DNA of 64,000 nt from Alphaproteobacteria bacterium (GTDB taxonomy: Bacteria; Pseudomonadota; Alphaproteobacteria; CAAGCB01; CAG-977). Below are positions 1-41,737 of the stretch, one piece after another. A program made the position numbers and the translations under genes. The notes beneath the pieces are model-generated. The model was not told where the DNA came from. It saw only the letters and a program-made list of their open reading frames with translations, and ran no database searches. The stretch spans positions 71,950 to 135,949 of the forward strand of contig CAAGEP010000006.1 in assembly GCA_900768875.1 (NCBI GenBank), given 5' to 3'. How positions within the stretch are numbered: position 1 is the stretch's first letter; each line of letters begins with the position of its first letter.

Positions 1-593
1 CGCGGCTGTGCGGATTTGTCTGCTTCGCTTTTATAACAACGGCGACCGTTTTAACGCTGTCTTTGTTGCATTTGACGGGGGAATTCGAGGTTGATGCTAC
101 GCTGGCGGTCAATCCGACGTATTCCGAAAATCTGGCGTACTTTCAACCGCTGCATCCCGATATGCCCGCGATGGATTTGCTGTCCGAAATGTTTGTTCGC
201 CAGTTTATTACGGTGTCAAACACACTCTACAAGGATACGCACGAAATGATGCGCATGTGGGGGAGCGGCGGCATGGTTCGCTATATGTCGTCCCCGAGAA
301 TTTATGGCGAATTTTGGGACAGAGTCAGCAAAACGATGTTTGATGGCGATGCGCCGCCTTTGGCAACGATGGAGCCGCATATCCGCCGCATTTTGAAAGA
401 AGGCTGGAACAGCTGGCAAATCTTCTTTGAAACGCGCACGATGAAAAACAATATCGAAGATCCCAAAATCGAACATTGGATTGCAACGATTCAGTTTAGG
501 TATTATAGTTATAATGCGGTTATGTTCCGGCGGTTGCGCAACCCGATGGGCTTTACGGTAACGCAGTACCATTTGGCGCGGCAGAAAAGATGA
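1..593 (+). CDS. virB8: T4SS VirB8 family protein, 5'-truncated by window edge (frame open to position 3; hydrophobic TM-like segment CGFVCFAFITTATVLTLSLL then periplasmic NTF2-like domain)
   Basis: The frame is open from the window start, with no stop from nt 3. The periplasmic domain shares the signature F[RW]WG..G..RWMSSP..Y with the downstream VirB8 paralog. The stop overlaps the next start (ATGA). Confidence 0.7.
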   Translation, partial: RLCGFVCFAFITTATVLTLSLLHLTGEFEVDATLAVNPTYSENLAYFQPLHPDMPAMDLLSEMFVRQFITVSNTLYKDTHEMMRMWGSGGMVRYMSSPRIYGEFWDRVSKTMFDGDAPPLATMEPHIRRILKEGWNSWQIFFETRTMKNNIEDPKIEHWIATIQFRYYSYNAVMFRRLRNPMGFTVTQYHLARQKR

Positions 594-802
594 GGAAAAC
601 GGTTATGAAAACGAATTCGGTTAAAAAAGCTTTGATTGTCGCCGTGCTGACGGCAGGCGTTGCCGCGTGCGGATCGATTTTTGAAAAAGAACCCGTCGGA
701 ATCGGCAAGGATATTTCCGAACTCAAACGGTCGCCGTGCGCTTGCATGATGCTGAAGCTGCCTGCGGGACTGCCCGACTGGATGTTGAGCGCGCAAGGAT
801 AA
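590..802 (+). CDS. virB7: small lipoprotein, VirB7-like (signal peptide + lipobox VAAC)
   Basis: 70-aa ORF with an N-terminal signal peptide and an LTAGVAAC|GS lipobox. It sits between two virB8 paralogs, as in Rickettsiales rvh clusters. Its ATG overlaps the upstream stop (ATGA). Confidence 0.5.
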   Translation: MRKTVMKTNSVKKALIVAVLTAGVAACGSIFEKEPVGIGKDISELKRSPCACMMLKLPAGLPDWMLSAQG

Positions 803-808
803 TGCCCC

Positions 809-1588
809 ATGCCCAGACCGATGAAAAAACAACAGCCTTTGGTGCCGAAAAAAGACGCGGACGCGCCTTCTTCCGTTAATGCGAAAGATGACGCTCAGCC
901 CGTCAAAGCGCGCCCGAAAGCACAGGCGGCGCCTTCAAACGACGAGCTGACGGTTGATTTGTTGCGTGAACGCCGCTATTTGTGGACGGCGCGCGCGTTT
1001 GCGATTGTGTCGGCGGTGGCGCTGTGTCTGAATCTGGTTCTGATGATTGCGATGGCCAACTTGATGCCTTTGAAACGCGCCGAACCGTTTTTGCTGACAT
1101 TCCAAAGCAAGGACGATCAGGTTGTCCGCATCCGGCCGTTGGAATCCGATTTGGGGGCGAACGATTTGCTGACGGAAGCGATGATTCGCCAATATGTCCT
1201 GTTGCGCAACACGATGACCGCAGATATCGAAGAAATGTCGTTCCGTTGGGGCAATGACGGGCCTTTGCGCTGGATGTCGTCGCCCAATGTTTACAAACAA
1301 TTCGCCAAAACAATCAAAGACTGGCTGGCGCGCGTCAAATTGGAAGGCTTGACCCGCGAAGTCCGCATTGAATCCGTTGTTCGACAACAGGATATTTGGG
1401 TGGTTTATATTGTAACGCGCGATATGCTGCCCGAAGCCGACCAGCCCGTAACACAGCGTTGGCGCGTGAAACTGAAAGTCCGTTATTTCGGAATGTCGTC
1501 CAAAAACGAAGTCAAGTACGTTGACAGACTGAAAAATCCGTTGGGTTTTGTCGTGTCGGCTTATGCAATCGAAAGTGCCGCAGATTAA
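809..1588 (+). CDS. virB8: T4SS VirB8 (bitopic inner membrane protein; second paralog)
   Basis: 259 aa with an N-terminal cytoplasmic region, one TM (FAIVSAVALCLNLVLMIAMANL) and a periplasmic NTF2-like domain paralogous to ORF 1..593. Confidence 0.75.
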   Translation: MPRPMKKQQPLVPKKDADAPSSVNAKDDAQPVKARPKAQAAPSNDELTVDLLRERRYLWTARAFAIVSAVALCLNLVLMIAMANLMPLKRAEPFLLTFQSKDDQVVRIRPLESDLGANDLLTEAMIRQYVLLRNTMTADIEEMSFRWGNDGPLRWMSSPNVYKQFAKTIKDWLARVKLEGLTREVRIESVVRQQDIWVVYIVTRDMLPEADQPVTQRWRVKLKVRYFGMSSKNEVKYVDRLKNPLGFVVSAYAIESAAD

Positions 1589-1600
1589 AGAAGGTGTGCC

Positions 1601-3124
1601 GTGAAAAACAGTATTTCAATTCGTCTTTTCGCATTTGTTTTAACGGCGGCGGTCGCCGTGTCGGGGCGGGTTTCGGCTCAGCAGTCTGCCGCGCGCGAAT
1701 CCATGGATGCCGCCATTGAGCAGTCGAACGGCCAATATTCCGAAATCGACATGCCGTATCTGTGGTCGTTGGGCATGCAGCAAAAAGCGTGGAACAAACC
1801 GTTGGAACATTTGGGTGAAGGACAATCCAAACCGGGATATTCCCGCTATTTCTGGTCGCCCGATTTGGTACTGCCTTTGCGTATTCGCGAAGGAATGCAC
1901 ACGTTGATTAACTTTCCGTCGTGGGAATACATTGACAATGTGTTTTTGGGCAACGCCAGCGCATTCGGATCGCAAAAAGTCGCCGCAAACGCTTTGATGG
2001 TTTTTGCAAACAATCCGGAACTGGTCGGCATGGATACGAATATGATTGTGTTCGGCCGGTCGGGCAACCGCTATGTTTTTTATTTGCGCAGCGAAACGTT
2101 CAATGCGGACAGAATTACAAACGCCGTCGTCGATATTATTGTCAACGACAGTAAATTCGTTCCAGACGATTCGGGAAAAACCCCTTTTTCGGCGGGTGAG
2201 ACGGGTGTCGGCGCAACACCCGCGGGGGCGGCTTCCGTCGGCGGAACGGCAGGCAAAGCCAAGAGCAAAAAGCTGAAATTTTTTGATCCGATGAACGACT
2301 GGTTGGAAGATTTGGACGTCGATCCCGAAAAACTGAAATTCGATATTGATGTTTTCGTTCCCAATCCGGAAGACATGGAAATCGCCCCCGAACGCGTATG
2401 GCGCGACGAGATTTTCACATATATTGACTTGGGGCCGAAAGCGTTATCAATGACGCAGCGTCCGATTGTCAATCTGCTGGTGCAGGGCAGTGAAGTCCCT
2501 GTCGGTTTCAGAACGCGCGGGCCGAACGGACGGCTGATTGTGGTCGAAGGAATCGGCGATTTGGTGCTGCGAAACGGCAAACGGCTGTTGTGCTTGAAAA
2601 TTCGCAAAGATCCGAGCTTTGGCACGGATTGGGTCGAATATGACCAATCCGTACAGCCCGCTTATTCACCCGCGGGAATGAGAACCCCCGGCGTTTCGCC
2701 CCGCGGCGCGAACGAAATCGCCAATGAACAGGCGTCGTCTCAAATGGCGCGGCAGACGATAATACAGCGGGCGCAACAGCAGCAGATGTCCGACAATCTG
2801 TCTTTGACGGGCAGGAACGCACAGATTTCGGCGTCGTTTGCGAATCGCTATCGCCGTGCGGCGACGGAAACGATTGCGATTGAATTGGGCGCGGATGCTG
2901 AAATTTCGGCTCTGGAACGGAAGTGGGACAATATTTACCGCAAAAACAAAGACTTGCTTGCAAACTACGAGCCGTATTATTCGGTTGACGCGGTTGCCGA
3001 AGGCGAAACAAAGGATTTATTCCGTTTGCGCATCGGGCCCGTCGGATCGATTAAGGACGGCGACAAGTTGTGCAATCAGCTGGGTCGGCGCGGTGTCACC
3101 TGTATTGTGGTGCGGACGCAATGA
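1601..3124 (+). CDS. virB9: T4SS VirB9/TrbG/CagX family protein with C-terminal SPOR-like domain (507 aa)
   Basis: Signal peptide (AVSGRVSA|QQ). A VirB9 C-terminal-domain-like region (ERVWRDEIFTYIDLGPKA ... PIVNLLVQGSEVPV). The C-terminal ~70 aa resemble a SPOR repeat (DLFRLRIGPVGSIKDGDKLCNQLGRRGVTCIVV). Its stop overlaps the virB10 ATG (ATGA). Confidence 0.6.
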   Translation: MKNSISIRLFAFVLTAAVAVSGRVSAQQSAARESMDAAIEQSNGQYSEIDMPYLWSLGMQQKAWNKPLEHLGEGQSKPGYSRYFWSPDLVLPLRIREGMHTLINFPSWEYIDNVFLGNASAFGSQKVAANALMVFANNPELVGMDTNMIVFGRSGNRYVFYLRSETFNADRITNAVVDIIVNDSKFVPDDSGKTPFSAGETGVGATPAGAASVGGTAGKAKSKKLKFFDPMNDWLEDLDVDPEKLKFDIDVFVPNPEDMEIAPERVWRDEIFTYIDLGPKALSMTQRPIVNLLVQGSEVPVGFRTRGPNGRLIVVEGIGDLVLRNGKRLLCLKIRKDPSFGTDWVEYDQSVQPAYSPAGMRTPGVSPRGANEIANEQASSQMARQTIIQRAQQQQMSDNLSLTGRNAQISASFANRYRRAATETIAIELGADAEISALERKWDNIYRKNKDLLANYEPYYSVDAVAEGETKDLFRLRIGPVGSIKDGDKLCNQLGRRGVTCIVVRTQ

Positions 3125-6100
3125 ACGAAGAATTACTCAGCTCATCGGATAAATACTTGAAGAAATCCAACCGGACGTTGCTTCTGGTTGGAATCTTCGC
3201 GTTTCTTGCTTTTTTCATAGGCTTGATTGTTTTGTTGAGCGGCGGGGAAGCGCAAAAGGAAGACGCAAAAGTAACCGTTGAGGGAGCCAGCGACGCTTTT
3301 ACCGACATTACGGGGGGCGATGCCGACAACTTTTCCAATTTCGACGAACCGTCAACGGGCGTCAAACTGAACGTTACGCCCGATGTCATGCGCTTTGATC
3401 AAGTCGTGCTCGGCACTTCCGCGGAAGGGGCGCTGACCATCACGCCGTCATCGGGGCGCGTCAGCATTATGGAAATCGCGTTTGAAAACAACCCCGACGA
3501 CGGATTCAAACTGGAAAGCAAGTGTAAGCCGAACGATATTCTGACAACGGATTTGTCCTGTACCGTCATTGTCAAATGGGAACCGAAAACCGCACGGACG
3601 ATTCAATCGAATCTGGCGATTAAATGGCGTGATGAAACGGCTGGCGCAATCGGAAAAACGGTATTGGTTTCCGTGTCCGCCATGGCTATCGACACCAGCC
3701 TTTGCGGCGTGTGCGACGAAGCTCCGGGCGGTGGCACGACCGCCGATCAACTGCGTCAGAAAGGACGTTTGATTTTAGGACCCGACGGCAAACCTATCGG
3801 TTATGCGGACGAAAACGGTGTCGTGTACGGGTTGGACGGCAAACGCATCGGCACGTTGCGTCCCGACGGAACGGTTGTTGACGATCAGGGGTACATTATC
3901 GGTGTGGCGGAAGGCGTGCGCGTCGCTTTGGGGCCCGACGGCAGCATTATCGGAACGATTTTGCCCGACGGACGCGTCATTGACAAAGACGGCAATCTTA
4001 TCGGCTATGCTTTGCCCGACGGCACGATTGTGGATTTGAACGGCAATGTCATCGGCGCGGCAATGCGCACGGGAACGGCCGTCGACAAAAACGGCAATCC
4101 TATCGGCCGCGTGATGCCCGACGGACGTGTACTGGACGAAAACGGCAACCTTATCGGCTACTTGAATCCCGACGGCACGATTGTGGATTTGAACGGAAAC
4201 ATCATCGGTTCGGTGATGCCTTCGGGGGCGGTCGTCGATGCTTTGGGGCGCGTTTTGGGCATTGTCATGCCCGACGGTTCGGTGGTTGACAAAGACGGCA
4301 ATGTTATCGGCCGCGTTTTACCCAACGGGTTCGTGGTTGACAAAGACGGCAACATCATCGGCCGCGTGATTAAAGAAGGGCTTGCCATCGGTCCGGGGTG
4401 CCGCCTTATCGGCCGTGTCAGCACGGACGGGTCGGTCATGTCTTCCAACAAGCAGGTCGGACGGCTGACCGCGGCGATGATTGTGGTTGACATGGGCAAC
4501 AATCCCGTCGGCGGCTATGTGCAAGAAGGCGCGGTTTTGGGATGGGATGGAAAGACAATCGGCAAAATCGATTCCGACGGCCAGCCCGTCAGCTTCAAAG
4601 GCGATTTGCTGGGGTGCTTGCTGCCCAACGCGGCGGTTGTCAATGACAGCGAGGAGATGATAGGCGCTTTGCGGCCTTACGGAACGGTTGTCGGAACGCG
4701 CTGCGGTTTTGAAGGCCGCGTGATGCCCGACGGTTCCGTCGTTAACAACGGCGAACTCAAAGGGCGCATCTTGCCGGATAAAACCTTTTTGCGCGAAGAC
4801 GGAACCATCGGCGGCGCGATTGCCCGCAGTAACGTCGGGCTTGCGCCGGGATGCGCCAATTTGGGCTTTGCCAACATCGACGGACAAATGATGACCACCA
4901 AAGGCGAATTTGTCGGGTGTTTGGCGGCAAACGGCGATGTGCTGGATGACAAGTATGTCGTTTTGGGGCGTGTGTTGGATACGGGAACCGCTATCGGCGT
5001 TGACGGCAGAATGATCGGCATTTTGGACAGCGCGGGCAAAATTGTCGATAAAAACGGAAAAGTTTTGGCGTGCATGGATCCCGATTACGTCGCGATTTCC
5101 GAAACCAAAAACGAACCTGTCGGCATGGCGACCCCGCAGGGCGGCGTTTTGGACCGTGACGGCCGGACGGTCGGATGGGTGATGCCCGACGCGTCGGTCA
5201 AAAACACGCAGGGAGGTTCTGTCGGCAAAACATTGGGGGACGCCTCTGTTGTCGATATGACAGGGCAAAAAGTCGCCCGCGTCGTTCCGTTCCAAGGATT
5301 GCCGTTAAAGGCGGCGTGCGAACCCGTCGGGCGGATTATTATGGACGGGCGTATTGTCGACAAAGACTTTAAACGGACGGCGTATTTAAGACTGGACGAT
5401 TCTTTGGCGGACGAACAGGACAATTTCATCGGACGTTTGGCAACGGCTCAGCACGGCATCGATTCCCGCAGCACTTATGTGGGGGCGATTGACGAAACGG
5501 GGGCTTTGATTAACCAGGCGGGTGAAAAAGTCGGCTGCTTGCGTCCGGACAATCTGTTCGTCGACTCGGACGGAAAATTCAAAGCCGCGCAAATGCTCAC
5601 GGGGCTGGCCGTCAATCCGCAAACCGATTTGTACGCCCGCGGCGATTCAATCGGCAAAGCGTTAAACCTCAAAGGAACGGATTTTGTCGGTAAAACGTTG
5701 GTCAGCACTTACATTCAAAATGACGATAAAACGGTAACGGGCGGCATCATTCCCGCCGGAGCGGCGGTTTTGGACATTAAAACCAGCAAGCCCATCGGCC
5801 GTTTGCTGCCGGACGGCAATGCGGTGAATTTGCAAAGCCGTTTTCTGGGGCGGTTGAAAATGCCGGGCGGCGACGTTGTGGATCGCGCCGGAACCGTTGT
5901 CGGCCGCGTTTTTGTGGGATTGAGGCAAGTGATTGGGCCGAACGGCGAAATTTTGGGCGTCGTTTTGTCCGACGGAACGGTGATTGACGCCAACGGGCAA
6001 GTCATCGGACAGGCGGATTTGCAAGGAAAAGTCGTCGATAAGGACGGCAATGTCATCGGCGAAGTTCTGCCTGTGGGCATGCCTGTTTTGGGGGCGGACG

Positions 6101-9100
6101 GCAAAATCATCGGCTATGTCGGATTAAACGGCGAAATCGTTGACGAAGACGGCAAACCCGTGTTGGGCGAAGACGGCAAGCCTTTGCGTTACCGTTCGGG
6201 CGGAATGGTGGTCAGTGCGGACGGAAAAGTGGTTGGCTTTACGCTGAATGACGGCTTGGCGATCGGCTTTGACAACAAAGTGCTGGGAACAATCAACGCT
6301 CAAGCCGTTGTTCGGAACGCCAACGGGACGGACTTGGGGACGATGCAGGTTGACGGCACCGTCGTTGACACAATGGCGACGCCTATCGGTCGCGGACTGA
6401 TTAACGCCGTTCCCGTCGGCAGGCAATGCCGCGGGTTAGGGGCTGTGAATTCAGAGGGCAAAGTTGTTTCCGCTTCGGGCGACGAACTGGGGTTTGTAAC
6501 GTTTGACCGAGCCGTTTTGGATGCGACAAATACACAAATCGGAATTGTACTCAGCCCCGATTCCGTGATTGACAGACCGTGCAATATTACGGGCGAAATC
6601 GGGCGCGACGGTAAATTCCGCAGCGCAAGCGGCAACGAAACCGGCTGTGTGGATTTCGACGGCATCGTAACGAACAAAAACACGAAACGCATCGGAACGG
6701 TGATTTTGAAAGGACCTGTCATCGGCTTTGACGGCAAAGTGTTCGGTAAAGTCGTTCCCAACGGCGAAGTGTTGGATGCAGACGGCAATGTTTTGGGATG
6801 CTTCGGCGCAGACGGCGCGATTTACAACAAAAGCAACACGCTGACGGGCGTGTCCGATTTAATGAAATACGCCGTTGACGCCAAAGGAAAAACCGTTGCC
6901 AGAATCGTCGGCGGAAAATACGGCGTTTCACGGGAAAACGACAAATTGGTCGGGATGCTTGAAGGCGGAAGATTGCTGGATGACAAAGGGACGGAAATCG
7001 GGTTGCCCGTTCCCGCGGGCAGACGCGTCATCGGTCGTGACGGGCGCATTGTCGGCACGGTTCTGCCCAAAGGCGGTGTTGCGGCCGATAACGGTGAAAA
7101 CAAAGGCTTTGTAACATCCCGCATGCGCGCTTTGACACCCGACAACAAATTCTTGGGGCGTGTCGTTCCCGTCGGAGAGGAGTGTAAGGACAAAGGCGGA
7201 CAAGTCGTCGGCAAAGTTCATTTTGACGGTACGATTGTCGATGAAAACGTCGAAGTGCTGGGGCGTATTATGGCGAACGGTACGGCATTAAGCAATGCGG
7301 GAACGTATTTGTGCTCCATTTCTCCGATGAGCGTTGTTGACGATGTGTGGACAGGCAAAGCCGTGTATGATGCCAACGGAAATCTTATCGGTTATGTCGA
7401 CGAAGATGGAAACGTTCGCGATGCCAGCGGAAAAATCATCGGCCGCGTCATGCCCGACGGAACGGTCGTCGATTTGAACGGCAACACAATCGGTTATGTG
7501 GCTTTGGGCGAACCCGTGTATGATGCCAACGGCAAGCTTATCGGTTTTGTCGGCGAGGACGGCATTGTCCGCGATGCGCAAGGCAACGTTATCGGCACTT
7601 TGCGTCCCGACGGGACGGTCGTTGACGAAAACGGCAACATTATCGGAAAAACGTTGGGAACGCCGCTGTACGACGCTGACGGAAATCTTATCGGTTTCGT
7701 CGGCAAAGACGGGGTGGCGCGCGATTTGAACGGCAATGTGCTGGGGGTTCCCGTGTTTGACGAAAACGGCAAGCTTATCGGTTTTGCGGATAAAGACGGA
7801 AAGGTTCGCGATTTGAAAGGTAATGTCATCGGCACTTTGCGTCCCGACGGGACGGTCGTTGACGAAAACGGCAACATTATCGGAAAAGCGTTGGGAACGC
7901 CGCTGTACGACGCTGACGGAAATCTTATCGGTTTTGTCGGCAAAGACGGGGTGGCGCGCGATTTGAAAGGCAATGTGCTGGGGGTTCCCGTGTACGACGC
8001 CAACGGCAAGCTTATCGGTTTTGCGGATAAAGACGGAACGGTTCGCGATTTGAAAGGCAATGTCATCGGCAAAGTTCTGCCTGACGGGACGGTCGTTGAT
8101 TTGAACGGCAATGTCATCGGCAAAATCGATTCCAGGGCGATGCAGGCCAAAAAGAATGTTCGGATTGCGGTCGGCCGCGACGGCAAATTTTTGGGCATTG
8201 TCGGTGAAGACGGCTTTGTCCGCGACGCGAACGGCAATATCATCGGCAAAGTTCTGCCCGACGGAACGGTCGTCGATTTGAACGGCAACGTTATCGGTTC
8301 CGTGATAGAAGGCGAGCCGCTTTACGATGAAAACGGAAACCTTATCGGCGTTGTCAAAGCCGACGGAACGGTTGTCGATTTGAACGGTAATGTGCTGGGG
8401 CATTTGAACGCTGACGGCGAAATCGTTGACAAGGACGGCAATGTTATCGGCATATGGAAAAACGGCAAGCTGACCATGCAGGGCGACAAGCTTAAACCGC
8501 GATTCGCTTTTGATAAAAACGGCAACAGAATCGGCATCGTCCTGCCCGACGGAACGGTTATTGACGCGAACGGCAACATCATCGGCCATGTGGACGAAAA
8601 CGGCAACGTCATCGGTCTGGACGGCGAAATTATCGGCTCTTTGACCGACGGCGGCGGAAAAGAAGGCAAGGACAAAGATAAAGTTTCCGTTTTCGGAAAA
8701 TTCGATCCGGATTCCTACCGATACCGCGGTAAAGGTTTGGGCGCGGGCGGCGGCACGGGCAAGGGCGAACGCTATGACCCGTCGCGGATTAAAGAGCTGC
8801 GCGCGAAACAAATGGCTTACCGCAAAATGATTCGTCCGGGATTGGGCGCGGGATTGGAGGAGGATTCCGAATCGGCGTTGCTGAAAAAACAGCACAGAGC
8901 CAACAACTGGAGCAGCATCAACATTAATAAAAACGTATCGTCCTATCGTGTAAAGATGGATAATATGATTTTAGCGGACAAAGCCATTCCCGCCGTATTG
9001 ACGCGGTCAATCGATTCTTTGTACAGCGATGTTCCCGTTTCCGCCGTTGTGGAACGCAACGTGTATTCGGAAAGCGGCCGGAAAGTGATTATTCCCGCGG

Positions 9101-9993
9101 GCAGCCGTTTAATCGGTGAACAGGGAAACGCAGGGGCGGCTGAAGAAAACAGTATTGCCGTAAAAATGCAGATTAAATGGACGCGTTTGATTCGTCCCGA
9201 CGGTGCGGCGTTCAAGTTTGAAGACGGTGCGTCGGGCGACGCGCAGGGGCGCGCCGGTGTTTCGTCGTACGTCGATTTGCAGCTGATTCGGAAATTCGGG
9301 ACGCCGTTGTTGCAAAGTACGGTTTCCTCCGCGCTGTTGTGGGCGATGTCTTCCAATTCAAAACCCGAAGTCGGCGACAACGGCGAAATCGCGCTCAGCG
9401 ACCGTCAGCAGGCGGCGCAGGACGCGCGTTCTCAGTTTTCGGACGATATGAGATCGATGTTTGATTCCATTTTTGCCATGACGTCCAAAATTCCGGCTCG
9501 TTCGTTTGTTCCGTCGGGAACGCGGATTACCGTTTTCGCCAAAGAGGATTTATGGCTTCGTTCCGAAGTGGAAGATAACGAAGTCAATCCTATGCTTGGA
9601 AAGGGATTGGTAAACGAAAAAATGGGTACCGAAGAAGACTTGCGCCTGCAAAAACAAAAGATGAAAGACAAAGGCGAGGATATGGGCGGCTTGACGCAGG
9701 AACAAGTAAATCAAAACACTATGATAGCGGGCGGGACTCCGAACAATCCGCAAATGCAGCAGCAGATTTACTACAACAGCTACGGTCAGCCCGTTATGCC
9801 GCAACAAGGCGGATTGGCGCCTCAGCAAGTGCCGGCCGGATATTATGCCGCACCGCCGGGATACTACGGTTATGCTCCGCCGCCGCAGTCGCAACTGCTG
9901 ACTCCGCCGGCGCCGCAACAGCCGAAGCCGCAGAGCGCGCCGGCGCTTCAAGAATCGGTCAAGGATGAAGATCCCGCCCCCGAATTGTTCTGA
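3121..9993 (+). CDS. virB10: giant T4SS VirB10/TrbI family protein (~2290 aa) with N-terminal TM anchor, ~1600-aa tandem-repeat insertion, VirB10 C-terminal domain and Q/P/Y-rich tail
   Basis: The ATG at 3121 overlaps the virB9 stop. A TM helix follows (LLLVGIFAFLAFFIGLIVLLSG). The C-terminal region (YRVKMDNMILADKAIPAVLTRSIDSLYSDVPVSAVVERNVY...IIPAGSRLIGEQ...) matches the VirB10/TrbI fold signature. The gene sits in canonical virB9-virB10-virB11 order. Confidence 0.75.
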   Translation: MNEELLSSSDKYLKKSNRTLLLVGIFAFLAFFIGLIVLLSGGEAQKEDAKVTVEGASDAFTDITGGDADNFSNFDEPSTGVKLNVTPDVMRFDQVVLGTSAEGALTITPSSGRVSIMEIAFENNPDDGFKLESKCKPNDILTTDLSCTVIVKWEPKTARTIQSNLAIKWRDETAGAIGKTVLVSVSAMAIDTSLCGVCDEAPGGGTTADQLRQKGRLILGPDGKPIGYADENGVVYGLDGKRIGTLRPDGTVVDDQGYIIGVAEGVRVALGPDGSIIGTILPDGRVIDKDGNLIGYALPDGTIVDLNGNVIGAAMRTGTAVDKNGNPIGRVMPDGRVLDENGNLIGYLNPDGTIVDLNGNIIGSVMPSGAVVDALGRVLGIVMPDGSVVDKDGNVIGRVLPNGFVVDKDGNIIGRVIKEGLAIGPGCRLIGRVSTDGSVMSSNKQVGRLTAAMIVVDMGNNPVGGYVQEGAVLGWDGKTIGKIDSDGQPVSFKGDLLGCLLPNAAVVNDSEEMIGALRPYGTVVGTRCGFEGRVMPDGSVVNNGELKGRILPDKTFLREDGTIGGAIARSNVGLAPGCANLGFANIDGQMMTTKGEFVGCLAANGDVLDDKYVVLGRVLDTGTAIGVDGRMIGILDSAGKIVDKNGKVLACMDPDYVAISETKNEPVGMATPQGGVLDRDGRTVGWVMPDASVKNTQGGSVGKTLGDASVVDMTGQKVARVVPFQGLPLKAACEPVGRIIMDGRIVDKDFKRTAYLRLDDSLADEQDNFIGRLATAQHGIDSRSTYVGAIDETGALINQAGEKVGCLRPDNLFVDSDGKFKAAQMLTGLAVNPQTDLYARGDSIGKALNLKGTDFVGKTLVSTYIQNDDKTVTGGIIPAGAAVLDIKTSKPIGRLLPDGNAVNLQSRFLGRLKMPGGDVVDRAGTVVGRVFVGLRQVIGPNGEILGVVLSDGTVIDANGQVIGQADLQGKVVDKDGNVIGEVLPVGMPVLGADGKIIGYVGLNGEIVDEDGKPVLGEDGKPLRYRSGGMVVSADGKVVGFTLNDGLAIGFDNKVLGTINAQAVVRNANGTDLGTMQVDGTVVDTMATPIGRGLINAVPVGRQCRGLGAVNSEGKVVSASGDELGFVTFDRAVLDATNTQIGIVLSPDSVIDRPCNITGEIGRDGKFRSASGNETGCVDFDGIVTNKNTKRIGTVILKGPVIGFDGKVFGKVVPNGEVLDADGNVLGCFGADGAIYNKSNTLTGVSDLMKYAVDAKGKTVARIVGGKYGVSRENDKLVGMLEGGRLLDDKGTEIGLPVPAGRRVIGRDGRIVGTVLPKGGVAADNGENKGFVTSRMRALTPDNKFLGRVVPVGEECKDKGGQVVGKVHFDGTIVDENVEVLGRIMANGTALSNAGTYLCSISPMSVVDDVWTGKAVYDANGNLIGYVDEDGNVRDASGKIIGRVMPDGTVVDLNGNTIGYVALGEPVYDANGKLIGFVGEDGIVRDAQGNVIGTLRPDGTVVDENGNIIGKTLGTPLYDADGNLIGFVGKDGVARDLNGNVLGVPVFDENGKLIGFADKDGKVRDLKGNVIGTLRPDGTVVDENGNIIGKALGTPLYDADGNLIGFVGKDGVARDLKGNVLGVPVYDANGKLIGFADKDGTVRDLKGNVIGKVLPDGTVVDLNGNVIGKIDSRAMQAKKNVRIAVGRDGKFLGIVGEDGFVRDANGNIIGKVLPDGTVVDLNGNVIGSVIEGEPLYDENGNLIGVVKADGTVVDLNGNVLGHLNADGEIVDKDGNVIGIWKNGKLTMQGDKLKPRFAFDKNGNRIGIVLPDGTVIDANGNIIGHVDENGNVIGLDGEIIGSLTDGGGKEGKDKDKVSVFGKFDPDSYRYRGKGLGAGGGTGKGERYDPSRIKELRAKQMAYRKMIRPGLGAGLEEDSESALLKKQHRANNWSSININKNVSSYRVKMDNMILADKAIPAVLTRSIDSLYSDVPVSAVVERNVYSESGRKVIIPAGSRLIGEQGNAGAAEENSIAVKMQIKWTRLIRPDGAAFKFEDGASGDAQGRAGVSSYVDLQLIRKFGTPLLQSTVSSALLWAMSSNSKPEVGDNGEIALSDRQQAAQDARSQFSDDMRSMFDSIFAMTSKIPARSFVPSGTRITVFAKEDLWLRSEVEDNEVNPMLGKGLVNEKMGTEEDLRLQKQKMKDKGEDMGGLTQEQVNQNTMIAGGTPNNPQMQQQIYYNSYGQPVMPQQGGLAPQQVPAGYYAAPPGYYGYAPPPQSQLLTPPAPQQPKPQSAPALQESVKDEDPAPELF
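3775..8650 (+). repeat. intragenic tandem array (~90 copies) of a degenerate 17-19-residue unit V-[LM]-P-D-G-x-V-V-D-x-x-G-N-[VI]-I-G-x within virB10; includes near-identical 237-bp direct repeats (about 7591..7827 vs 7828..8064)
   Basis: Read directly from the translation (e.g. VMPDGSVVDKDGNVIGR / VLPNGFVVDKDGNIIGR). At the DNA level a 79-codon block is duplicated with only a few mismatches. Confidence 0.85.
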
Positions 9994-10009: not shown

Positions 10010-10987
10010 ATGGCAACAGACGCGTTTCAAGTGTTAAAGTCGGTTTTGCGCTATTTGTCCTATTGGTACGAACAGGACAATGTGGAAGAAGTCGCCATTA
10101 ACCGTCCCGATGAAATCTGGCTGCGTTTGCGTGGGCGCCGCGCGTATCCGTGGGCTTGTCAGCAGGATAAAAACCTGTCCAGAACGTACTTGATGGATTT
10201 GATGCACATTATCGCCAACACTTTTGAACTGCCGTTCGACCCCGAACAGGGATCCCCCGCCGTATACGCGACTTTGCCGGGCGATCACCGTTTTACGGGG
10301 ATTGCGGGCAAAAATGTGATGTACGATAACGACGATTTGACGGGCGGCATCGCCATGTGCGTCCGCGTTCATTCCGACGGCGTTAAATTCGGACTGGGCG
10401 ATTACGGGTTGAAAGCGGGTGAACGTCTGCAAAAACTGAACAAGCTGAAAGAGGTCGAAAACCCCGAAGACCCGTATGAACGTTTAATCCTGTCCATCAA
10501 ACGCGGCGATCACATTCTGGTTTCCGGTGCGACGGCGACAGGTAAAACGACATTTTTGAACAACCTCTTAACGATTCTGGATTCTCATAAACGCGTCATT
10601 ACGATTGAAGATACGCGCGAATTGATTGTTCCGCATCCGAATCACGTTCATTTGGTTTTGTCGCGTACCGAACAAACGAACACGATGACGTATCCGAAGC
10701 TGATTGACCTTGTCGTGCGTTTTACGCCCGACGCGATTATCGGCGGTGAAATTTCGACGGCGAACGCGGGAGCTTTGTGGGAATTGATGGGATCCGGTCA
10801 CGACAACTGCTTTGCGACCATTCACGCCGAAAATTCGGAAGCCGCGTACAAAGCGTTCACCGACCGCATTTTGCACTGTTATCCGACCATTGACCGCGAA
10901 AAAACGATTGCCGAAATGCACGACAAACTGCGTGTCGTGCAAATCAACCGTCAGGGCAACATCCGCGCGGTGACCGAAGTGACTTAA
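10010..10987 (+). CDS. virB11: T4SS ATPase VirB11
   Basis: 325 aa with Walker A GATATGKTT and the VirB11/CpaF family layout. It lies immediately downstream of virB10. Confidence 0.85.
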   Translation: MATDAFQVLKSVLRYLSYWYEQDNVEEVAINRPDEIWLRLRGRRAYPWACQQDKNLSRTYLMDLMHIIANTFELPFDPEQGSPAVYATLPGDHRFTGIAGKNVMYDNDDLTGGIAMCVRVHSDGVKFGLGDYGLKAGERLQKLNKLKEVENPEDPYERLILSIKRGDHILVSGATATGKTTFLNNLLTILDSHKRVITIEDTRELIVPHPNHVHLVLSRTEQTNTMTYPKLIDLVVRFTPDAIIGGEISTANAGALWELMGSGHDNCFATIHAENSEAAYKAFTDRILHCYPTIDREKTIAEMHDKLRVVQINRQGNIRAVTEVT

Positions 10988-37594: not shown

Positions 37595-40500
37595 CTAGGC
37601 CTGAGCGTTGAAAACGCGCGACAAGGTCATATACAGACGGCCTGCTTCAGAACCCAGCAAAACAGCGGTCAGCACGTCGGAACGTTCGTTTTCCTGCGCG
37701 CGGGACAGCACACCTTCAAAAATGCCCATATATTTTGAAACATAATTGCGGAATTCGGAATCTTCGGTGTATTTTTCGCCGATTTTGCGGATTTGATTTT
37801 TGTCAATCGCGCGGGACAGATAGCGGATAAATGCACTTTTATCGCCGGAATAGTAGCGTTTCCACAAATCGTCTTCAACATTCGGGGCGAACAGGCGCGT
37901 CATATCGACACCCAGCGATTGCAGCTGTTCAATAATCAGCGACGCGTCTTTCATAAAGCGGTCGGTGTCGGCGTCTTCTTTGCGTTTGTTCAGCGCGGCG
38001 ATGTATTCCTCCGCCGATCGGGATGCCGAAATCAGCGATTGCACCTGACGATTGAACGCGCCGCCCAGTTTAAGGGACTGTGCCGAAATCTGTTCGCCCG
38101 ATTCGTGGATTTCCTTGGCGTTTTCCTTTAGAACGCTCAACAAATCCTGCAGGCGTTTCAACGCTTCGTCTGCGGCGGTTGACAGCGTGTCCGACTGTTC
38201 GACGAACTGTTCGCCCGATTTGCGGACTTCGGCGGCGATGCGTTCGGAATTACCGGCGACTTCGCTGATCATGGCGCGCAAACGCTGGCCTGCGACATCG
38301 ATTTGAACGACGCCCTTGTTGGACATGTCCTCGAATTCTTTACCGATCTGATTGACGACATCGCCGATGCTGCGGACGCGTTCTTCGGCCGTTTCGGCGG
38401 TTTTGTTAAAGTCCTCGGCCCGTTCGCGCAGGACAACGCCGCAGTTTTTGACGGCTTTTTGGGCTTCTTCCGACAATCGAGAAACCTGATGCGCCTGTAC
38501 CAAAAACGTATCGCCGGATTTTTCCAATTCTTCAAGCGCGATTTGAGAAGCGGCGCGCAGCCGTTCTTTTTTTGCGTCAAGCAAATCGCCCGCATCCGTC
38601 AGATCGCCGATGACTTGTTGAACCAGTTGCGACAAAAGTTCGGTTTTGTCCTCCAGCATTTCAGATGTGGATTGGGACAGCGACACGGATTTTGCGGCGG
38701 CTTTGGATGCTTCTTCGTTGCGCTGACGCAGGTTTTCGCCCATGGCTTCCAGCTCGAAACCGATGCGCGACGACGCGGTCAGCAAATCGGTCGTGTTTTT
38801 CCGAACGGCTTCGTTCGTATCGCGCAAATGAATCATCACGTCTTCCGCCGCGCCTTTCAAAGCGTCGGTTTGGCGGCTCAAAGACGCTTCACCCAGTCGA
38901 GACTGCGTGGCAATCATGTTGGCAACATCGCCTAAATCAATAATGTGCCTCTGCATGGAATCGCGAACCATCAAGACCTGCTGAGCCGATTGAGCGGATT
39001 GTTTTTGCAAATCGTCCGTTTGAGCGGCGATTTCGGCTTTCAGTCCGTTCATGCGGTCGTTCAAGGCGTCCGCGGTTGCGGAAAAACCGGATTGCACGCG
39101 GGCCAGCGTGTCGATGCCTGTTGTTTGATTGTCCGAAAAATCCTTCATTAAAGCCGAAATTTCCGTTATTTTTTCACCGAACAGGGCGGCGGCTTCGGTC
39201 AAGCGGGCTTTCGCCTGCGCGCCGATGTCCGTCAAGCTGTCCGTCTGCGCCGATAAAGCCGCGCCGACAACTTCCAAATGGGACACCGTCGTTTCCGATG
39301 CGCGGGTCAGTTCTTTTGTTTGGACGCTCAGTCCTTCCTCAATCAAGCGGATGCGGGATACCAAGCGTTCCAAATCGCTGTCCGCCTGTTCGGACTGTTC
39401 CCGCAGCAAAGTCGCCGCTTTGCCCATTTGTTCCGCCAGTTTATCGGAAGCATCGGACATCGTTTTGCTCTGTTTGGAAAACAGGGAATCGATTCGATCC
39501 GTCTTTTCCGACAAATCGCCGGCAACGGTTGTCGCTCTGTCCAGCAGAATTCCCGCATCCCCGTCCAGTTTGCGGAACTGTTCGTCCAGTTGGGAAACGG
39601 CTTTTTCGGTGCGGCTTTTCAGCAAATCGGCGGACACGTCCATCTGCGTCATCCGTCGGGTGATTTCTGCGGAAACTTCTTCCGTATAGCCTGTCATGCG
39701 GCGAATCGAATCGTCCAGCATGTCCTTGTGGGCGTCCAGTGTTTCCGCCAGCTGCGTGTTTGCGGCGGCCGTTTGTTTCGACGCATTGTCGAACGATTGG
39801 ATTTTGTTGCCCAAAGCAATTTCCAGTTCAGTGAATTTGTCGGCGGCGGCGGACGATTTCGCCACTATGTCGCGCAGCCGGTCGGACAGGCTTTCGATTG
39901 TTGCGGCACTGCGGTTTTCAAGCAGTTCCGCGATGTGAGCCAAATCTTCCGACTGCTGTTTCAATTCGCCCTTGATTTCTTCCACTCTGGCCGATGCGGC
40001 GGAAATGTATTTCTGCTGTTGAGCCAACGACGTTTCGGACACCAGTGCCTGCGACACCAGTGCGCTGCTTAAATCGGACAGCTCGGCGGAATGTTTCAGC
40101 AGGCGGGCGCAAGAGGAATCGGCGCGTTCGTTTGTTTGATCGACCGCCGTTTTCAAAAGGCGCACGCTTGCTTCAAAGCAAGAGTTTATCGATTCCAACC
40201 TGTCGTTCGCCGTATCCAAAGCGGCGTTCAGCCGCGCCGTTTGCGTATCCAGCGATTCCATGGCGGCTTGAGATTGGGCGTTCGTGTTTTTCAAAGCAAC
40301 CGTCAGCAGTTGCGTTTTCATGTCGATTTGTTCGCCGACATCCGTCAGGCGGCTGCTCGCTTTTTCCGCCGCCGCTTCAATCGATTCGGCTTTGCCGTTC
40401 ATTTCGTCCGATACCGCGGAAATGCCGCCGACGGCCGTTTGCGCCGCCGTGTTGATTTCGGCGATGTAAGTGTCCAATGTGGTCTGCAAGGTCTTGAAGC

Positions 40501-41737
40501 GCGCGACGATTTTTTCGGCTTCGCTGTCCAGACTGTTGTTTTGTTCCTTGAACGTGGCGGACAACTGCGCCGCCGTGGCGTGCAAAGCGTCGTTTTTGGC
40601 CGAAATTTCGCTTTGCTGGGCGGACAGCAATTCCGTCAAGGTCTGTTCGCGCCGTTCCAAATTGTCCGCCATCTGTTCCGCATTGGCGCGTGCCGATTTC
40701 GTCAGTTCATCCAGAATTTGAGCTTTTTCATCCAGCAAAACCGTCAACGCCGCCACGGAATCCTGCGTGCGCGTTCCCGCCTGCTCAAGGGCGGTCAGCT
40801 GATTTCGGATTTCCGTGCTGATTTCCGTTGTCTGATTTGCCAGCTTTTCGCGAATGTTGTCGGCGGCGGCGGTTAAAGAGGCGGCGTTTTTGGCGATTTC
40901 AAGCGCGGTGATGCCCGTTTGTTCCGTTAAAATGTCGCGGGCGTTTTCGGATGCGGTTTTCAGCAATCCGCTTTGTTCCCGCACATCCAAAGTCAATCGG
41001 GTCAGATTGTCGGTCAAAATGTCGTTCGTTTGCAATAAAGCGTCGCGCTGCGCGGTCAGCCGTTCCCTTGCGGCGCAAACGGTTTCGTCGGTTTCGCGGG
41101 CGGCGTTTTGCAAAGCTTGCGTGTTTTCCTGCAGCAAGGACAGGCTTTTTTCCGTCTGTTCGCCGGCTAAAGTGCAAAGCTGTTCAAGTTCGCGCGTTTT
41201 TTCGGCGACTCCGTTCGTTCCCCGCGACAAGGCGGCTTCCATGGCTTCGGTGGCTTTGAAAATGCCGGAGGTTTGCTCTTCAAAAGATTTTCCGATCGAA
41301 TCGGTACAGTTTTTCAATCGGGCGTAAACGGTGTTCAAATCCGATGTTTGCGCTTTCAAGCTGTCCAGCACACCCGATACATACAGGCGGTTTTTGGCTT
41401 CGGGATGCGTAAATTCCGCCATATAGCGGCGCAAAATGTCGGCCTCGCGGACATAGCGCCGTTCGGACGCAAAGTATGCCGCCGCAATCCAAATGAAGGC
41501 AACGGGACTCAGCAATCCCGTCAAGCAGCTGAAGTATTCGGGGGGCGTCATTTCGTAGCGCGCGCTCCACCACCCCGAAACGCCCAAAAACGACCATGCC
41601 GAAACGCCCCACAAAACCGTTAGCGCGATTGCCGCAATCACGGCGATTTTGTCTTTTGCCGATTTCGGGGAAAGGGTTTCCTGCGACAGCAGCAGCGTTT
41701 CGTTTGTTTCGTTTTCCGAAGCCATGGTCTTTTCCAT
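37595..41737 (-). CDS. 1380-aa membrane-anchored coiled-coil protein (2 N-terminal TM helices, ~1100-aa Q/A/L/E/T/S-rich coiled coil, ~170-aa C-terminal globular domain); TipN-like architecture, function unknown
   Basis: TM segments IAVIAAIALTVLWGVSAWSFLGV and LTGLLSPVAFIWIAAAYFA. Long heptad-like low-complexity region. No recognised enzymatic motif. Confidence 0.5.
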   Translation of the reverse strand: MEKTMASENETNETLLLSQETLSPKSAKDKIAVIAAIALTVLWGVSAWSFLGVSGWWSARYEMTPPEYFSCLTGLLSPVAFIWIAAAYFASERRYVREADILRRYMAEFTHPEAKNRLYVSGVLDSLKAQTSDLNTVYARLKNCTDSIGKSFEEQTSGIFKATEAMEAALSRGTNGVAEKTRELEQLCTLAGEQTEKSLSLLQENTQALQNAARETDETVCAARERLTAQRDALLQTNDILTDNLTRLTLDVREQSGLLKTASENARDILTEQTGITALEIAKNAASLTAAADNIREKLANQTTEISTEIRNQLTALEQAGTRTQDSVAALTVLLDEKAQILDELTKSARANAEQMADNLERREQTLTELLSAQQSEISAKNDALHATAAQLSATFKEQNNSLDSEAEKIVARFKTLQTTLDTYIAEINTAAQTAVGGISAVSDEMNGKAESIEAAAEKASSRLTDVGEQIDMKTQLLTVALKNTNAQSQAAMESLDTQTARLNAALDTANDRLESINSCFEASVRLLKTAVDQTNERADSSCARLLKHSAELSDLSSALVSQALVSETSLAQQQKYISAASARVEEIKGELKQQSEDLAHIAELLENRSAATIESLSDRLRDIVAKSSAAADKFTELEIALGNKIQSFDNASKQTAAANTQLAETLDAHKDMLDDSIRRMTGYTEEVSAEITRRMTQMDVSADLLKSRTEKAVSQLDEQFRKLDGDAGILLDRATTVAGDLSEKTDRIDSLFSKQSKTMSDASDKLAEQMGKAATLLREQSEQADSDLERLVSRIRLIEEGLSVQTKELTRASETTVSHLEVVGAALSAQTDSLTDIGAQAKARLTEAAALFGEKITEISALMKDFSDNQTTGIDTLARVQSGFSATADALNDRMNGLKAEIAAQTDDLQKQSAQSAQQVLMVRDSMQRHIIDLGDVANMIATQSRLGEASLSRQTDALKGAAEDVMIHLRDTNEAVRKNTTDLLTASSRIGFELEAMGENLRQRNEEASKAAAKSVSLSQSTSEMLEDKTELLSQLVQQVIGDLTDAGDLLDAKKERLRAASQIALEELEKSGDTFLVQAHQVSRLSEEAQKAVKNCGVVLRERAEDFNKTAETAEERVRSIGDVVNQIGKEFEDMSNKGVVQIDVAGQRLRAMISEVAGNSERIAAEVRKSGEQFVEQSDTLSTAADEALKRLQDLLSVLKENAKEIHESGEQISAQSLKLGGAFNRQVQSLISASRSAEEYIAALNKRKEDADTDRFMKDASLIIEQLQSLGVDMTRLFAPNVEDDLWKRYYSGDKSAFIRYLSRAIDKNQIRKIGEKYTEDSEFRNYVSKYMGIFEGVLSRAQENERSDVLTAVLLGSEAGRLYMTLSRVFNAQA

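Follow-up and report, generated by a model that had tools for sequence, protein, structure and literature searches.

A near-identical 79-codon tandem duplication with probable non-allelic exchange between its copies in the giant VirB10 of a gut alphaproteobacterium

Does the repeat array of a type IV secretion system (T4SS) protein gain and lose whole modules within a single bacterial species? This question is raised by the virB10 gene in a 64,000-nucleotide stretch of contig CAAGEP010000006.1 (the window), from an uncultured gut commensal of the Alphaproteobacteria. VirB10 is the energy-sensing subunit of the T4SS and spans the envelope, linking the inner and the outer membrane. A preliminary description of the window had reported a near-identical direct duplication of 237 bp (79 codons) inside the virB10 repeat array, and had taken it as a sign of recent expansion or contraction. 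We found the duplication in frame and with nine mismatches in 237 positions. Our favoured explanation, which we consider probable, is that a module of five beta-hairpins was recently duplicated in tandem and in frame, and that its copies have since been engaged in non-allelic exchange.

The two blocks (window positions 7591-7827 and 7828-8064) lie head to tail, each with 79 codons in the frame of the gene, and are identical at 228 of 237 nt. Careful alignment thus gives an identity of 96.2%, rather than one below 90%. The mismatches are at positions 7651, 7698, 7731, 7757, 7758, 7763, 7764, 7802 and 7821. There are five residue differences between copy 1 and copy 2 (T/A, N/K, F/Y, E/A and K/T), of which the preliminary description had correctly quoted the first two and omitted the other three. 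In Tandem Repeats Finder the region appears as one indel-free array (7513-8099; score 955), in which 2.5 copies of a 237-nt period match at 90%. The match string at offset 237 resolves this array into a partial copy (7513-7590), copy 1, copy 2 and a 35-nt stub (8065-8099). Only the last 78 nt of the upstream flank and the first 35 nt of the downstream flank therefore belong to the array, and a full 237-nt shift into either flank gives only 43-45% identity. The flanking blocks are thus not diverged copies of the unit, as had been proposed, and the unit is not a four-part super-repeat, as each block holds five 'xxxD-xxG-x-[ILV]IG' beta-hairpins of 17+16+17+12+17 residues. We scanned virB10 against itself by sliding 150-nt identity at offsets of 30-3000 nt, using multiples of 3 only. 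The best match is 0.98 at offset 237 and the runner-up among these in-frame offsets is 0.75, which rules out chance similarity as the source of the match. The remaining direct repeats in the gene are all at most 76% identical. The longest exact run common to the canonical copies is 60 nt, and they have no shared 118-nt run.

Canonical VirB10 has an N-terminal cytoplasmic tail, one inner-membrane helix, a proline-rich periplasmic linker and a C-terminal TrbI beta-barrel domain. In the present protein, a short N-terminal tail, the helix (residues 19-42) and a non-repeat region up to about residue 215 precede an array of about 1,640 residues, made up of hairpin units of about 17 residues with the consensus 'LPDGTVVDxNGNVIGxV'. 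The C-terminal domain matches TrbI (PF03743) over the full-length profile (E=8e-30, 104.6 bits against a cutoff of 35). The Protein Data Bank (PDB) chains that match it in phmmer searches are ComB10, CagY (E=2e-8), TrwE and Xanthomonas VirB10, with ComB10 as the best solved match. The array matches Bflower_2 (PF21785) with 385.3 bits against a cutoff of 38, in 12 stretches, and Bflower (PF21784) with 195.9 bits against a cutoff of 25. The Pfam families matched by the array are Bflower, DUF3659 and RHS-like families, with no pentapeptide family among them. The linker between the membrane helix and the C-terminal domain consists of G/V/D/N-rich beta-hairpins with 3.9% proline, and proline-rich sequence is found only in the C-terminal tail. 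Judged from the TrbI domain, the PDB matches and the beta-flower repeat matches in its sequence, the gene is a genuine VirB10 in which a huge beta-hairpin array has replaced the usual proline-rich linker. The assignment to virB10 in the preliminary description is likewise borne out by the TrbI match and by the position between virB9 and virB11.

We also observed a P/Q/Y-rich tail of about 100 residues beyond the TrbI domain, with a terminal D/E-x-P-x-PELF motif common to distant relatives. We know of no such C-terminal tail in canonical VirB10. Long antisense open reading frames (ORFs) run across the repeat array, at 7288-8895 and 4318-5295 on the minus strand of the window, at 4250-5227 in the same-species scaffold L002 and at 6040-8607 in contig L021. 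We rejected these antisense ORFs (for example, 7288-8895) as real genes and regard them as by-products of the repeat composition. Where a scaffold is gapped, gene callers pick up antisense ORFs instead of the broken virB10, leaving a C-terminal fragment of 676-755 residues.

The predicted structure of the repeats is almost purely beta. An AlphaFold2 model of residues 1414-1730 (317 residues; predicted local distance difference test score, pLDDT, 85; predicted template modelling score, pTM, 0.48) consists of beta-hairpins except for one short helix, with good local but no global confidence. Mapped onto the sequence, the predicted strands amount to ten, that is five hairpins, in each 79-residue block. 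One block modelled alone gives a pLDDT of 91 and a pTM of 0.67. Foldseek searches of the PDB with both models gave no global match (TM-score of at most 0.33) and only local similarity to hairpin repeats of the RHS and choline-binding kinds. In beta-flower profile matching, single 79-residue units alone score 32-37 bits, just under the cutoff. When the unit was scanned against Pfam in each of five circular registers, all scores remained slightly under the threshold, with no register favoured.

We collected contigs of the same species through exact VirB11, VirB9 and VirB8 proteins, which gave 19 independent assemblies including the window. A scan of Joint Genome Institute (JGI) metagenomes with a conserved 30-mer added one contig (L113). 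Across 11.2 kb of flanks, divergence among the same-species assemblies is 0.2-1.1%, and the sister species is 11% diverged. Two copies are present in 12 of the 19 assemblies, including the window. A further four lack precisely 237 nt and have a single copy: L004 (from ERZ15609826), L017 (ERZ27229799), L018 (ERZ27280972) and L019 (ERZ27287859). The other three (L002, L005 and L010) have a 100-N scaffold gap inside the block, each still showing at least two copies. Consistently, the full-length members of the protein cluster at 90% identity are either 2290/2291 or 2211/2212 residues long, a gap of exactly 79 residues. Copy number is therefore not invariant across these assemblies, in agreement with the recent expansion or contraction that had been proposed, and the suggested comparison between strains has yielded both states. 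MEGAHIT k119 and k141, SPAdes and SPIRE assemblies of different samples independently arrived at two copies that have the same diagnostic sites. One of the contigs, L012/L105 (ena:ERZ28570791, BRIT16-1_SAMN02333919 scaffold_63), is identical to the window in the 11.2-kb flanks and in the repeat region, and is probably from the same strain or sample.

In the strain tree built from the 11.2-kb flanks, the four single-copy alleles are scattered, each at a place of its own beside two-copy strains, and both the long and the short VirB10 length classes are present in both strain clades. The single copies combine copy 1 and copy 2 in different ways: L004 and L019 switch somewhere between unit offsets 107 and 140, L018 does so between 60 and 107, and the single copy of L017 is a double mosaic. 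Two-copy strains vary as well. Copy 1 and copy 2 differ at no site in L007, at one in L008 and at two in L108, the second copies of L020 and L113 are mosaic, and the partial upstream copy of L008 is overwritten with unit-type sequence. Eleven of the 13 variable offsets within the unit are sites at which the paralogous blocks differ, and the other two are private single-nucleotide polymorphisms. Segregating sites are denser in 7513-8099 (6.5%) than elsewhere in the gene (2.1%), and no other 474-nt window reaches this density. One copy is present in the sister species and in the two relatives that come next, and its mixed states at the diagnostic sites are in keeping with a single unit in the ancestor. 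A second in-frame length variant was observed in the sister species, where P0064 (2,154 residues) lacks 51 residues (153 nt) relative to P0063, seen on one 12-kb contig. This deletion, in the array's N-terminal part (equivalent to about 3970-4125 of the window), has a 'PDGRV[IL]D' hairpin on either side.

These observations can be joined most simply in the following scheme. One duplication would have occurred after the split from the sister species and before the present-day strains diverged; the copies differ by 3.8%, compared with at most 1.1% between strains and 11% to the sister species. The near-identical copies would then serve as substrates for non-allelic homologous exchange. Either unequal crossover or slipped misalignment would remove a copy and might add one, giving a VirB10 of 2,211 or 2,290 residues, and gene conversion would homogenise the copies or render them mosaic. 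Since the unit has 79 codons, every such event would stay in frame and a whole number of hairpins would be gained or lost.

The giant form of VirB10 is not peculiar to this species. We scanned one genome per species and found 311 loci with relatives of the C-terminal domain, of which the best 80 were kept (L023-L102). Full-length giant VirB10s were recovered from the contigs; a word-index homologue search returned only proteins of at most 760 residues. The kept loci are all from metagenome-assembled genomes of uncultured gut, rumen or faecal Alphaproteobacteria, such as UBA6411, HGM16787, Acetobacter sp. CAG:977 and Proteobacteria bacterium CAG:495. In the 72 kept loci with an ORF not cut by a contig end, VirB10 is 1,341-2,666 residues long, mostly 2,100-2,600; the giant form is therefore clade-wide and old, occurring in at least 72 related species. 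Two further relatives (about 2,680 and 2,540 residues) have N-gaps inside the array. Several of these species carry near-identical duplications of their own, among them L076, L091, L066, L044 and L094 (Table 1), all tandem, in frame and independent of that in the window. The species with a period of 237 nt have C-terminal domains 46-51% identical to that of the window, and their 79-residue unit is different in sequence and contains two cysteines. Recent module duplication recurs in this gene family, at what seems a preferred site and without a fixed unit size.

Several points weigh against the scheme of duplication and exchange. All related sequences come from short-read metagenome assemblies. 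Assemblies are notorious for collapsing tandem repeats, and the N-gaps, which break three scaffolds exactly inside the block, show that assemblers struggle at this site. The shared 60-nt run exceeds the maximum k of SPAdes (55), so SPAdes could skip a copy through it, and L004 is a SPAdes contig. Identical or near-identical copies (L007, L008 and L108) cannot be counted by an assembler and may number more than two, mosaic alleles could in principle stem from co-resident strains mixed during assembly, and a three-copy allele was not seen among the 19 same-species assemblies. On this basis the duplication might be fixed at two copies, with the single-copy, mosaic and homogenised alleles being artefacts of short-read assembly (collapse, bubble merging or strain mixing); a copy state independent of the strain tree is what random artefacts would also yield. 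Of the four single-copy contigs, however, three come from MEGAHIT (k119/k141), are 103-180 kb long and continue uninterrupted through the site, and collapse is not expected at these k values because no exact match between the canonical copies exceeds 60 nt. As general assembler behaviour, a loop in the assembly graph normally breaks a contig rather than collapsing it. Mosaic combinations, such as G-C-C in L017, must exist in the reads, because the diagnostic sites concerned are at most 67 nt apart and fit within one k-mer. Identical single-copy proteins recur on two or three contigs, and the sister-species assemblies are all single-copy. We consider an assembly artefact unlikely, a real copy-number polymorphism likely, and exchange between the paralogues, in some form, very likely. 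The single-copy contigs are probably real rather than collapsed, and exchange may still be ongoing.

If the single-copy alleles are real, they might be the retained ancestral state rather than secondary deletions, given that the sister species is single-copy and that the unit of L018 agrees with it at seven of nine diagnostic sites. We hold this to be very improbable. The single-copy alleles combine copy-1 states with derived copy-2 ones (for example, A at offset 140), the pattern to be expected if existing copies had crossed over, and they occur in both strain clades, beside two-copy strains. Canonical two-copy alleles also occur in both clades, and so the duplication predates the clade split. 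Much more evenly balanced is whether the polymorphism, though real, is functionally neutral, a matter of birth-and-death and concerted evolution with no role in tuning secretion or evading a host; we give this about an even chance. Length variation may be neutral turnover in a tolerant repeat array: array length varies widely across species (VirB10 of 1,341-2,666 residues) with a conserved operon, so the machine tolerates different lengths; the size and position of the duplicated unit differ between species, and each event changes only about 3% of the protein length. Duplication units in other species range from 147 to 588 nt and are not always five hairpins, which counts against the 79-residue unit being a strict domain or one closed five-fold beta-flower; the duplicated unit may thus not match a structural domain. 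On the other hand, the ratio of nonsynonymous to synonymous substitution (dN/dS) against the sister species is 0.02-0.12 in the array and 0.066 in the TrbI domain, so that purifying selection is as strong on the array and the array is constrained sequence, not filler. The 237-nt period also recurs at relative position 0.65-0.73 in genera with 46-51% identical C-terminal domains, suggesting a preferred or tolerated site. By analogy, comparable in-frame changes in CagY alter function (PMC3585145, PMC5954226), and a change in length might likewise alter the secretion machine here rather than being neutral.

The genes around virB10 (Table 1) stand in the order virB8, a VirB7-like lipoprotein gene, virB8, virB9 (CagX), virB10 and virB11 (T2SSE). 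The virD4 gene (T4SS-DNA_transf/TraG, 780 residues; positions 63-2405 of L011, minus strand) is on the opposite strand, about 6 kb before the window begins, with hydrolase and helicase genes between it and the virB8-B11 block. No virB2-B6 genes were seen within 10 kb. The window elsewhere carries chromosomal housekeeping genes (PBP1A, FtsK, IleRS, RF-2 and an amidase), which rules out a mobile element or plasmid context. In Rickettsia RvhB7 and in ComB7, '[KI]KSP' stands beside a second Cys, and the gene lies directly upstream of virB8b (Gillespie et al., PMC2653234). The present locus resembles the Rickettsiales rvh T4SS in its duplicated virB8, in the small lipoprotein with a K(R/K)SP-Cys motif directly upstream of the second virB8, in the virB9, virB10 and virB11 genes that come next, in the scattered layout with virD4 apart, and in the C-terminal domain that best matches ComB10. 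The lipoprotein motif and its position suggest an rvh/ComB-like T4SS in a gut alphaproteobacterium. The hosts are different, as ours is a flagellated gut bacterium, unlike the obligate intracellular Rickettsiales. Two side observations concern the neighbourhood. VirB9 carries a SPOR (peptidoglycan-binding) domain at residues 461-505 (23.6 bits against a cutoff of 21), which is unusual for a VirB9, and an ORF of 1,380 residues at 37595-41737 (minus strand) has no Pfam match at E<=1e-5.

Table 1. Features of the virB10 locus (window positions) and tandem duplications in virB10 of related species (positions within the gene)
Feature	Position	Strand	Evidence and remarks
virB8 paralogue a (5' end precedes the window; 225 aa in related contigs L004, L011)	1..593	+	Pfam VirB8, E=4.6e-10
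65-aa VirB7-like lipoprotein, between the two virB8 genes	605..802	+	lipobox LTAGVAAC, KRSPC motif
virB8 paralogue b	809..1588	+	Pfam VirB8, E=4.7e-22
virB9 (CagX domain), C-terminal SPOR domain	1601..3124	+	CagX E=1.7e-12, SPOR E=6.8e-5
Giant virB10, 2,290 aa	3121..9993	+	ORF, ATG at 3121 common to all related contigs; Pfam Bflower_2 385 bits, TrbI 105 bits
VirB10 N-terminal membrane helix, aa 19-42, TLLLVGIFAFLAFFIGLIVLLSGG	3175..3246	+	hydrophobic stretch seen in translation only
Beta-hairpin (beta-flower type) repeat array, about aa 216-1850	3766..8670	+	Pfam PF21785, PF21784, PF12396; hidden Markov model parse, units of about 17 aa
237-nt periodic tandem array, 2.5 copies	7513..8099	+	Tandem Repeats Finder score 955, offset-237 match string, top segregating-site density in gene
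Copy 1 of 79-codon module, aa 1491-1569	7591..7827	+	diagnostic sites A-C-C-TT-AA-A-T
Copy 2 of 79-codon module, aa 1570-1648	7828..8064	+	diagnostic sites G-T-A-AC-CC-C-C
Junction from copy 1 to copy 2			AAAGGTAATGTCATCGGCACTTTGCGTCCC, also given as GATTTGAAAGGTAATGTCATCGGCACTTTGCGTCCCGAC
TrbI/VirB10 C-terminal domain	8968..9558	+	Pfam PF03743, profile 2-188 of 188; PDB sequence matches
P/Q/Y-rich C-terminal tail, ends ...DEDPAPELF	9688..9990	+	translation; PELF ending kept in L021, L022 and alignment A1
virB11 ATPase	10010..10987	+	Pfam T2SSE, E=6e-21; exact protein on 162 contigs
L076 duplication	gene nt 5485-6130		period 237 nt; best 150-nt identity 99%; three copies; relative position about 0.7
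L091 duplication	gene nt 5143-5830		period 237 nt; best 150-nt identity 100%; three copies; relative position about 0.7
L066 duplication	gene nt 5152-5550		period 237 nt; best 150-nt identity 92%; relative position about 0.7
L044 duplication	gene nt 5572-5960		period 168 nt; best 150-nt identity 96%
L094 duplication	gene nt 2800-4020		period 588 nt; best 150-nt identity 100% over about 610 nt

To our knowledge, replacement of the VirB10 linker by long recombining repeats was previously known in only two lineages, those of CagY and DotG; in CagY, such plasticity serves both to tune secretion and to evade immunity. Our literature search found no paper linking VirB10 to beta-flower or DUF3659 repeats, and none linking RF32 gut Alphaproteobacteria to type IV secretion. 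It is conceivable, though on balance doubtful, that the beta-flower array is a host- or target-facing module, tuned by recombination, that adjusts secretion activity or antigenicity across the clade as five-hairpin modules are gained, lost or converted in frame at a preferred site. If so, it would represent a third, structurally unrelated route to a length-variable T4SS core protein, after the helical repeats of CagY and the pentapeptide repeats of DotG. The hosts are widespread yet uncultured gut and rumen Alphaproteobacteria, which raises the question of whether commensals, like pathogens, tune their secretion machines through repeat recombination. The locus could be used as a simple marker of strain-level variation, read by polymerase chain reaction or long reads. 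A practical warning is that short-read assembly breaks or collapses a virB10 of this type, and that fragments and antisense ORFs are often called in its place.

The closest relatives of the repeats themselves are the beta-flower proteins (PF21784/PF21785, clan CL0395). This fold was described in 2023, with hairpin 'petals', a [DNEQ]xxG tip and no solved counterpart (Durairaj et al., PMC10584680). The array resembles these proteins in its strong Pfam matches, in hairpins with a semi-conserved [DNEQ]xxG tip and in having no counterpart among solved structures. The described proteins, however, are small single domains of about 96 residues with 8-12 strands, some of them lipoproteins, whereas about 60-90 predicted hairpins stand here in an array of 1,640 residues fused to a VirB10 domain. 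We also found beta-flower/DUF3659 repeats in CpaB-like proteins of Tad pilus assembly (about 485 residues; P0228, P0231, P0232, P0235 and P0239-P0253), where they separate the SAF domain from the RcpC domain. Beta-flower repeats, which have had no assigned function, would thereby gain a biological context as extracytoplasmic spacers in envelope machines, the CpaB-like Tad proteins included.

Legionella DotG/IcmE, the VirB10 homologue of the type IVB (Dot/Icm) system, is similar in combining a TrbI C-terminal domain with a length-variable repeat region in the middle. That region consists of pentapeptide repeats and varies in length between species and strains; in L. oakridgensis, DotG has 1,011 or 1,161 residues, and high intragenic recombination is confined to the repeat part (PMC6761968). 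The present VirB10 differs from DotG in having beta-flower hairpins instead of pentapeptide repeats and a VirB8/9/11 context instead of a type IVB one, and is about twice as long.

The likeness to Helicobacter pylori CagY is in the genetics. CagY is likewise a VirB10-family protein of about 2,000 residues with a conserved TrbI-type C-terminal domain and a very large internal repeat region. Its direct DNA repeats recombine, always in frame, producing length variants among strains, and this recombination tunes secretion under immune pressure (PMC2194252, PMC3585145, PMC5954226). In-frame recombination of direct repeats is also what the 237-nt unit, the 2290/2211-residue alleles and the mosaics point to here, as read from short-read assemblies only. 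The repeat region of CagY consists of alpha-helical, cysteine-containing A/B modules (PMC2581425), in contrast to the predicted all-beta hairpins of the present array, and the two repeat regions have no sequence relationship. CagY contains many near-identical repeats, whereas we see a single recent duplication in an old, diverged array (at most 76% identity). Functional and immune-driven consequences have been demonstrated for CagY recombination, and the uncultured gut commensal described here has an rvh/ComB-like gene set rather than a cag island. Since CagY repeats are alpha-helical, DotG repeats are pentapeptides and the repeats described here are beta-flower hairpins, the locus lies outside both repeat families: it has the same genetic behaviour as CagY, with a different fold.

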